NCBI GenBank assembly: GCA_016784385.1
Contig: JADHUT010000001.1
Location: forward strand, 20,547 to 84,546
Source: Candidatus Microgenomates bacterium
Lineage (GTDB): Bacteria > Patescibacteriota > Microgenomatia > UBA8517
Length of the DNA stretch: 64,000 nucleotides
Direction: 5' to 3'
This document shows, piece after piece, positions 46,263 to 47,319 of this stretch. A program made the position numbers and the translations under genes. Under the pieces are notes generated by a model. The model made no database searches. It saw only the letters and a list, made by a program, of their open reading frames with translations, and was not told the DNA's origin. Numbering within the stretch: position 1 is the stretch's first letter; every line of letters begins with the position of its first letter.

Positions 46263-46961
46263 TTAAATTTTCTTCAATTCCCCAGCAATTTTTTCAAAAT
46301 TACCTTCCATTACTTGTTCTAAATTGTGCCAGGATTTGTTTATTCTGTGGTCTTTGATTCTGTTTTGTGGGAAGTTATATGTTCTTATTTTTTCAGATCT
46401 CATTCCTCTACCAATGGAGCTTCTGTAACCCGCAATAGTTTTTTCTTTTTCAACCTCTTGCAGTTCCCAAAGTTTAGAACGAATGAGAGAAAGCGCGATT
46501 ACTCTGTTTTGTTCTTGGTGTCTTTCTTCTCGCGAGTGAACTGAGAGACCTGATGGTTTGTGAGTAAGTCTCACCGCACTAGACACTTTGTTTACATTTT
46601 GTCCACCATGACCACCTGCCCTTATAAACTGCCAATCCAAGTCAGCTGGATTTATATTAACTTCGCTTTCAGCGACTTCTGGAAGAGCAACAACTGTTGC
46701 AGTAGAGGTGTGTATTCTTCCTCTTTTTTCGCTTTGTGGTACTCTTTGGACCCTGTGAACACCTGACTCATGTTTTAGTGTATCAAATACACCAGAACCT
46801 GTAATTTTTAAAACACCTTCATCAACTGGAGTAGTCTTCCAGTTATTTTTGACAGCAAATCGCATATACATTCTGTATAGGTCAGAAGCCCATGTTTTTG
46901 CTTCATCACCGCCGGTTCCACCACGAATTTCTAAATATACTGTTTGTGAAGAATTATCCAT
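46263..46961 (-). CDS. prfA: class-I peptide chain release factor, RF1-like, lacking N-terminal domain 1
   Basis: starts at equivalent of RF1 residue about 105 ([13 protein letters not shown]); GGQ present ([11 protein letters not shown]); decoding region [16 protein letters not shown] (RF1-type, PQS instead of PxT); upstream in-frame stop and L31 gene leave no room for domain 1. Confidence 0.75.
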   Translation of the reverse strand: [232 protein letters not shown]

Positions 46962-46980
46962 CAAAATGTTTTTTGAAAAG

Positions 46981-47319
46981 TTAAGCTTTTTTAGTAGCTT
47001 TTTTCTTGGTTTGTTTTCTTACTTCTGTTAGGGTGTCTGGTCTTGATAGTTCTTCCTGAAGCTTTTTTTCTCTTTTGGCCTTTCTTTTGTCGGCTTTACT
47101 GGTAGATTTTTTTGCCTTTGCACCCTTTTGTTTTGCTTTAAATGCTTCTACTCTTCCAGCTGCATCAACAAATTTCATTTTACCAGTGAAGAACGGATGA
47201 CAGCCAGAACATACATCAATTGCCAATTCAGGCACAGTTGCGCCAATTGTCATTGTGTTTCCACAAGCACAAGAAACTTTGCATTCATTAAACCATTTTG
47301 GATGTATTTTAGCTTTCAT
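46981..47319 (-). CDS. rpmE: 50S ribosomal protein L31 with about 45-aa lysine-rich C-terminal extension
   Basis: MKAKIHPKWF...CxxC..CSGCHPFFTG L31 core. Confidence 0.85.
   Translation of the reverse strand: MKAKIHPKWFNECKVSCACGNTMTIGATVPELAIDVCSGCHPFFTGKMKFVDAAGRVEAFKAKQKGAKAKKSTSKADKRKAKREKKLQEELSRPDTLTEVRKQTKKKATKKA

Follow-up and report, generated by a model that had tools for sequence, protein, structure and literature searches.

The rpmE-prfA locus

We analysed a window of 64,000 nucleotides from a Candidatus Microgenomates bacterium, a member of the candidate phyla radiation (CPR; assembly GCA_016784385.1, contig JADHUT010000001.1, positions 20,547 to 84,546), which carries on its minus strand a gene pair composed of rpmE, encoding ribosomal protein L31, and an orthologue of prfA, encoding release factor 1 (RF1). 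The prfA orthologue (46263-46961, including the stop codon at 46263-46265, with the ATG at 46961) encodes a protein of 232 amino acids that consists of domains 2-4 only, hereafter the window RF1. The first gene of the pair, rpmE (46981-47319), encodes an L31 of 112 amino acids with a Zn-ribbon core and a Lys-rich tail. The L31 stop is separated from the RF1 start by 19 nt (46962-46980), in which neither a terminator-like site nor a purine-rich Shine-Dalgarno sequence occurs. Upstream of rpmE, also on the minus strand, lies a promoter-like site, TTGACA-16-AACAAT (47368-47395, a consensus match only), and from this putative promoter prfA would be transcribed together with rpmE.

The start of the window RF1 corresponds to residue ~104 of E. 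coli RF1, in agreement with the original prediction, which placed it near residue 105 and saw the whole of domain 1 as lacking. In alignments to PDB sequences, residue 109 of E. coli RF1 pairs with residue 6 of the window RF1, and residue 85 of T. maritima RF1 with residue 5; hence the protein begins at the start of domain 2. The Pfam profiles follow the same pattern, the PCRF domain being covered only at profile positions 97-194 of 194 (E 3e-33) and the RF-1 domain in full (E 3e-35). Upstream of the ATG the RF1 frame extends just 19 codons before a TAA inside rpmE closes it (47019-47021, minus strand). Thus, nothing upstream can supply domain 1, and the earlier argument against a missed 5' region or a frameshift stands. 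The decoding region and the GGQ loop, which had also been read as kept, are both intact. The sequence reads Pro-Gln-Ser at the PxT 'anticodon' tripeptide (46731-46739, codons CCA CAA AGC) and GGQ at the catalytic motif (46599-46607, codons GGT GGA CAA), both on the minus strand.

In relatives of the window RF1, rpmE likewise lies directly upstream of the truncated gene, with the two genes 1-21 nt apart or overlapping. Where the end of the L31 gene abuts or runs into the RF1 start, translational coupling is suggested. The rpmE-prfA pair also occurs with full-length RF1 in cyanobacteria, Planctomycetota, Verrucomicrobia, Saganbacteria and other CPR bacteria, and the truncated gene is therefore the positional orthologue of prfA. 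The tight linkage of RF1 with L31 that had been proposed is borne out by the 19-nt spacing; but since full-length RF1 shows the same adjacency, we regard it as the ancestral arrangement, common though not universal and not special to this lineage.

The Lys-rich C-terminal tail of the window L31 is ~42 amino acids long (46981-47106, the 3' part of rpmE), and the tails of its Microgenomates relatives measure 31-41 amino acids. A published survey has already reported that bL31 is larger in the CPR (PMC9297842). We considered the tail as compensation for the missing domain 1 and rejected the idea, given that genomes of a second group with truncated RF1, the Portnoybacteria type described below, encode it beside a plain L31 of 69-72 amino acids.

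Identity and conservation of the short factor

The window RF1 resembles RF1 far more closely than any other class of release factor. It scores 302 bits against the NCBIfam RF1 model PRK00591, matching model positions 101-338 of 347, and 292 bits against TIGR00019; the respective curated cut-offs of 400 and 423 are not reached, and matches to the RF1 equivalog models begin only at model position 101-109. The RF2 model (TIGR00020) yields 196 bits, and the tripeptide is of the PQS/PxT kind rather than the SPF of RF2. The PrfH model (TIGR03072) yields 65 bits against a cut-off of 166.65 and matches the GGQ region only, and the ArfB model yields 50 bits, matching residues 99-135 only. Unlike ArfB, the window RF1 retains the second half of the PCRF domain together with domain 4. 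Structural comparison points the same way: the best PDB matches of the sequence are RF1 structures, and an AlphaFold2 (AF2) model (predicted local distance difference test score, pLDDT, 78.8) finds its best fold matches in ribosome-bound RF1 structures, with E about 1e-22. Alignment against the RF1, RF2 and PrfH families thus upholds the original prediction of an RF1-type factor rather than a member of the PrfH or ArfB families. By sequence as well as by position, we conclude, the gene is an orthologue of prfA.

The short form is also stably conserved. An identical protein is present on 17 contigs from several assemblies, and the 120 closest homologues, all those named being from Microgenomates or Woesebacteria, are equally short (223-266 amino acids, 68-100% identical). 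GGQ is found in 120/120 of these homologues and PxT in 119/120, PQS being confined to the window protein. Hence the Ser is a private, conservative change, and the PQS tripeptide, which the original prediction had singled out, is present in the window RF1 as read but had to be rejected as a trait of the family. The family alignment shows no variation at E20, Q72, P75, T85 and G119-G120-Q121 and almost none at the start Met, and the same start position is common to hundreds of clusters. We therefore give almost no credence to the view that faulty assembly or annotation created the gene, or that it is a pseudogene in decay. Its scores under the curated RF1 cut-offs would fit such a view; against it stand the recovery of the identical protein from independent assemblies, the shared start in hundreds of clusters and the invariance of the catalytic and decoding residues. 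An error in sequencing or assembly that removed the 5' part of the gene, raised at the outset as a possible refutation, is ruled out by the same contigs and homologues.

Graded loss of domain 1 and a charge shift in the core

To our knowledge, domain 1 of RF1 and RF2 is found in nearly all bacteria. In a sample of 80 RF1 loci from GTDB species genomes, joined by cluster representatives, about 100-108 residues precede the core in RF1 from outside the CPR. Within the CPR this number falls in steps, with 91, 70-79, 54-66 (to 79 at the widest), 43, 24, 15 or 0-5 residues. Of domain 1, the forms with an N-terminal segment of ~60 amino acids retain just the final helical hairpin. An RF1 family of ~300 amino acids is common in Levybacteria and other Microgenomates, and a second large truncated family, which we term the Portnoybacteria type (231-246 amino acids), is likewise encoded directly after rpmE. 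The latter family is nested among relatives of ~300 amino acids, with 72-79% core identity and a bootstrap value of 97. The truncated forms of Microgenomates are monophyletic in 6/100 bootstrap replicates, the inner branches of that tree being weakly supported. Taken together, the nesting of the Portnoybacteria type and the Microgenomates tree indicate that domain 1 has been lost completely at least twice, once in Microgenomates and once in the Portnoybacteria-type family, and probably more often. Full-text literature searches, several of them aimed at release factors of CPR/Patescibacteria, brought up no description of an RF1 lacking domain 1 in the CPR.

An ~11-residue loop of domain 2, present in T. 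maritima and E. coli RF1, is absent from the Microgenomates RF1 family, where it appears as alignment gaps; in the window RF1 the gap falls at residues ~44-50 (about 46812-46832). The same loop is missing in a ~300-amino-acid relative (P0123) and kept in a protein of the Portnoybacteria type (P0129).

This graded series bears on two alternative explanations. It is conceivable that the gene has been split, with domain 1, a loosely attached helical domain, being made as a separate polypeptide that joins the core in trans; the genome has been seen only in part, which leaves some room for such a gene. However, the shortening resembles erosion rather than fission, and two hidden Markov models (HMMs) of domain 1 detected no separate domain-1-like open reading frame (ORF) in 298 kb around 13 truncated genes, the best match having E = 0.07. 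The HMM trained only on full-length domain 1 does detect the reduced domains of other CPR bacteria, at E values of 1e-3 to 2e-5. On this evidence we consider a split gene very unlikely.

It is somewhat less improbable, though still unlikely, that the window RF1 is an accessory paralogue, a rescue or special-purpose factor in the manner of PrfH or ArfB, and that a canonical full-length RF1 is encoded elsewhere. PrfH, too, lacks domain 1; our inspection covered ~84 kb of the genome, comprising the window and 10 kb on each side; and NCBI records label these proteins only as 'release factor-like' or 'PCRF domain-containing'. Set against this, the PrfH and ArfB models fall far behind that of RF1 (65 and 50 versus 302 bits), the RF1 decoding residues are invariant, no gene for RtcB was among those called within 10 kb of the window RF1, the gene occupies the ancestral rpmE-prfA position, and intermediate lengths link the truncated proteins to normal RF1. 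A further, weak point is that no longest contig of equal size recurred across the two match lists for the ~300-amino-acid and ~232-amino-acid Microgenomates forms.

The loss of domain 1 is accompanied by a marked change in the charge of what remains. The median net charge of domains 2-4 is +7.5 (isoelectric point, pI, 9.6) in 12 truncated proteins, 0 in 11 intermediates and -5 (pI 5.7) in 60 full-length proteins. Full-length controls of low G+C content have core net charges of -8 to +3, and regression explains the charge shift by N-terminal length and not by G+C. The residue directly after PxT-E is basic in 12/12 truncated proteins as against 5% of the full-length ones, and Lys209, found in 12/12 truncated proteins, is replaced by Leu, Phe or Gln in full-length RF1. 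The truncated proteins have also lost acidic residues from their C-terminal helix and tail.

A proposed mode of termination with a reduced RF1

Genes within the window end in all three stop codons (78 genes: TAA 54, TGA 14, or 18%, and TAG 10), and the anticodon of tRNA-Trp is CCA. The genetic code is therefore the standard one, and the activities of both RF1 and RF2 are required. Genes for RF2, prfC and prmC were all absent from the ~84 kb inspected, and no second release factor-like ORF was found in the window, in its 10-kb flanks or in 86 retrieved loci. Likewise, no RF2 lay in the neighbourhood of truncated RF1 on contigs of 0.5-0.95 Mb. Contigs that carry a truncated prfA include JBFOMN010000030.1 (GCA_040960375.1; 954,911 bp) and two others of 826 and 885 kb. 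A motif pattern for RF2 picked out 10 ordinary RF2 genes from viral contigs, none of them from this lineage, and a search of metagenomes with an AT-biased RF2 motif yielded, among the matches listed, only Firmicutes-like full-length RF2. Two seemingly short RF2 genes (L152 and L153) proved to be frameshifted. The failure to find the RF2 of this lineage means little, because the search was limited by sampling.

One could suppose that the truncated factor has broadened its specificity to read all three stops and that RF2 has been lost. TGA ends 18% of the window genes, and neither the ~84 kb nor any of the CPR loci examined showed an RF2. Nevertheless, the decoding elements are those of canonical RF1, with PxT in 119/120 homologues, and the sampling limit on the RF2 search applies here as well; we regard this explanation as highly improbable.

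Two further ORFs came to light in these scans. A GC-rich IMG/VR contig (L092 2010-2363, minus strand) carries an RF2-like ORF of 118 amino acids that has the motifs of domains 2/4 (SPFD..RRHTCF, QVRSY) and is without a GGQ domain. At the end of a human-gut contig (L161 1-987, minus strand), an RF2-type N-terminal part with SPF and GGQ is joined to an RF1-type C-terminal part, which may be an assembly chimera or a product of gene conversion between RF1 and RF2.

Domain 1 of RF1 normally contacts the ribosomal stalk and RF3. Without it, the window RF1 would make no contact with L11 or the L7/L12 stalk and would be unable to stimulate RF3, so that binding and release would be factor-independent. 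We favor the reading, at a probability of about three in four, that the gene is an ordinary prfA, most likely encoding the only RF1 of the organism, which has been reduced to domains 2-4 and acts without stalk or RF3 contact, the altered charge compensating for the loss. Domains 2, 3 and 4, forming a tRNA-like core with nothing else attached, would bind the A site, and the protein is predicted to recognise UAA and UAG through the RF1 decoding elements (the Glu at the tip of alpha-5, Gln72, the P-x-T/S tripeptide and the I-H-T segment), with peptidyl-tRNA hydrolysis predicted to be carried out by GGQ. Compared with full-length RF1, the core has gained about +12 in charge, the basic residues directly after the tripeptide included; this gain may replace the binding energy of domain 1, and the factor would then leave the ribosome without RF3. 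Published work, as far as it is summarised in PMC1586002, provides a precedent: codon-specific release proceeds without domain 1, a truncated E. coli RF1 functions in vivo, and stimulation of RF3 requires domain 1.

Several observations weigh against such a scheme. A second, full-length RF1 may lie elsewhere in the genome, of which ~84 kb has been seen, and the RF2 and prfC of the lineage were unlocated within that span. Immediately to the left of the window lie the genes for L10, L7/L12 and an L11 with both of its domains; therefore the stalk itself is intact. A reviewer's remark carried in PMC1586002 has it that E. coli RF1 is inactive on ribosomes lacking L11; on that account, losing the L11 contact would not be trivially neutral. 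Finally, the correlation between charge and N-terminal length ignores phylogeny, all truncated forms belonging to the CPR.

It is tempting to speculate further that several CPR lineages share a minimal mode of termination, with no RF3, with RF1 (and perhaps RF2) lacking the domain that binds the stalk and RF3, and with a convergent basic surface that re-tunes affinity for the ribosome, although we hold this wider proposal to be doubtful as it stands. On that wider proposal, an entire radiation of bacteria would terminate translation without needing the L11/L7-L12 contact, which would have been lost independently several times. The lineages with truncated RF1 constitute a natural, repeated experiment on the purpose of domain 1, and offer ready-made proteins with which to probe termination independent of RF3 and the stalk, and electrostatics as a substitute for a docking domain. 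There is also a consequence for genome surveys. TIGR00019 is one of the 120 bacterial marker proteins of GTDB (PMC12281837), and with 292 bits against a cut-off of 423, RF1 is likely to be counted as missing in these genomes.

Elsewhere in the window, a ThyX-family ORF of 513 amino acids (17952-19493, plus strand) is about twice the usual length of ThyX, with PF02511 as the sole Pfam family listed. Pairs of a small ORF and a PIN-domain ORF at 28332-29026 and 57582-58255 (both plus strand) are toxin-antitoxin-like, and a further PIN_3 ORF lies at 17383-17832. Some 3.3 kb past the right-hand end of the window, a tyrosine recombinase gene contains an intein with a LAGLIDADG endonuclease (L088 13303-15501); the DnaB of a relative also carries an intein (L005 3788-6391).

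Comparison with known systems places the window RF1 closest to canonical bacterial RF1 (prfA; TIGR00019 / PRK00591; T. maritima 1RQ0, T. thermophilus 4V63), with which it shares 45-50% identity over domains 2-4, GGQ, a tripeptide of the PxT type (though PQS in the window protein itself) and the rpmE neighbourhood. It differs in lacking the ~105-amino-acid domain 1 and the ~11-residue loop of domain 2, in having a basic core where that of canonical RF1 is acidic, and in scoring below the family cut-offs. PrfH (RF-H) is also without domain 1 and combines a codon-recognition-like domain with GGQ; however, its decoding motifs have diverged and it is paired with RtcB, whereas the window RF1 adjoins L31 and an S41 peptidase. 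ArfB / ICT1, also devoid of domain 1, has a GGQ domain but lacks the codon-recognition domain and bears a basic C-terminal tail. The same architecture as that of the window RF1 is found in the laboratory forms of E. coli RF1 and RF2 without domain 1 (Mora et al. 2003), which, according to the summary in PMC1586002, read stop codons and release peptide and are unable to stimulate RF3. Compared with these constructs as that summary presents them, the window RF1 is a natural protein, conserved across large lineages and carrying many basic substitutions.
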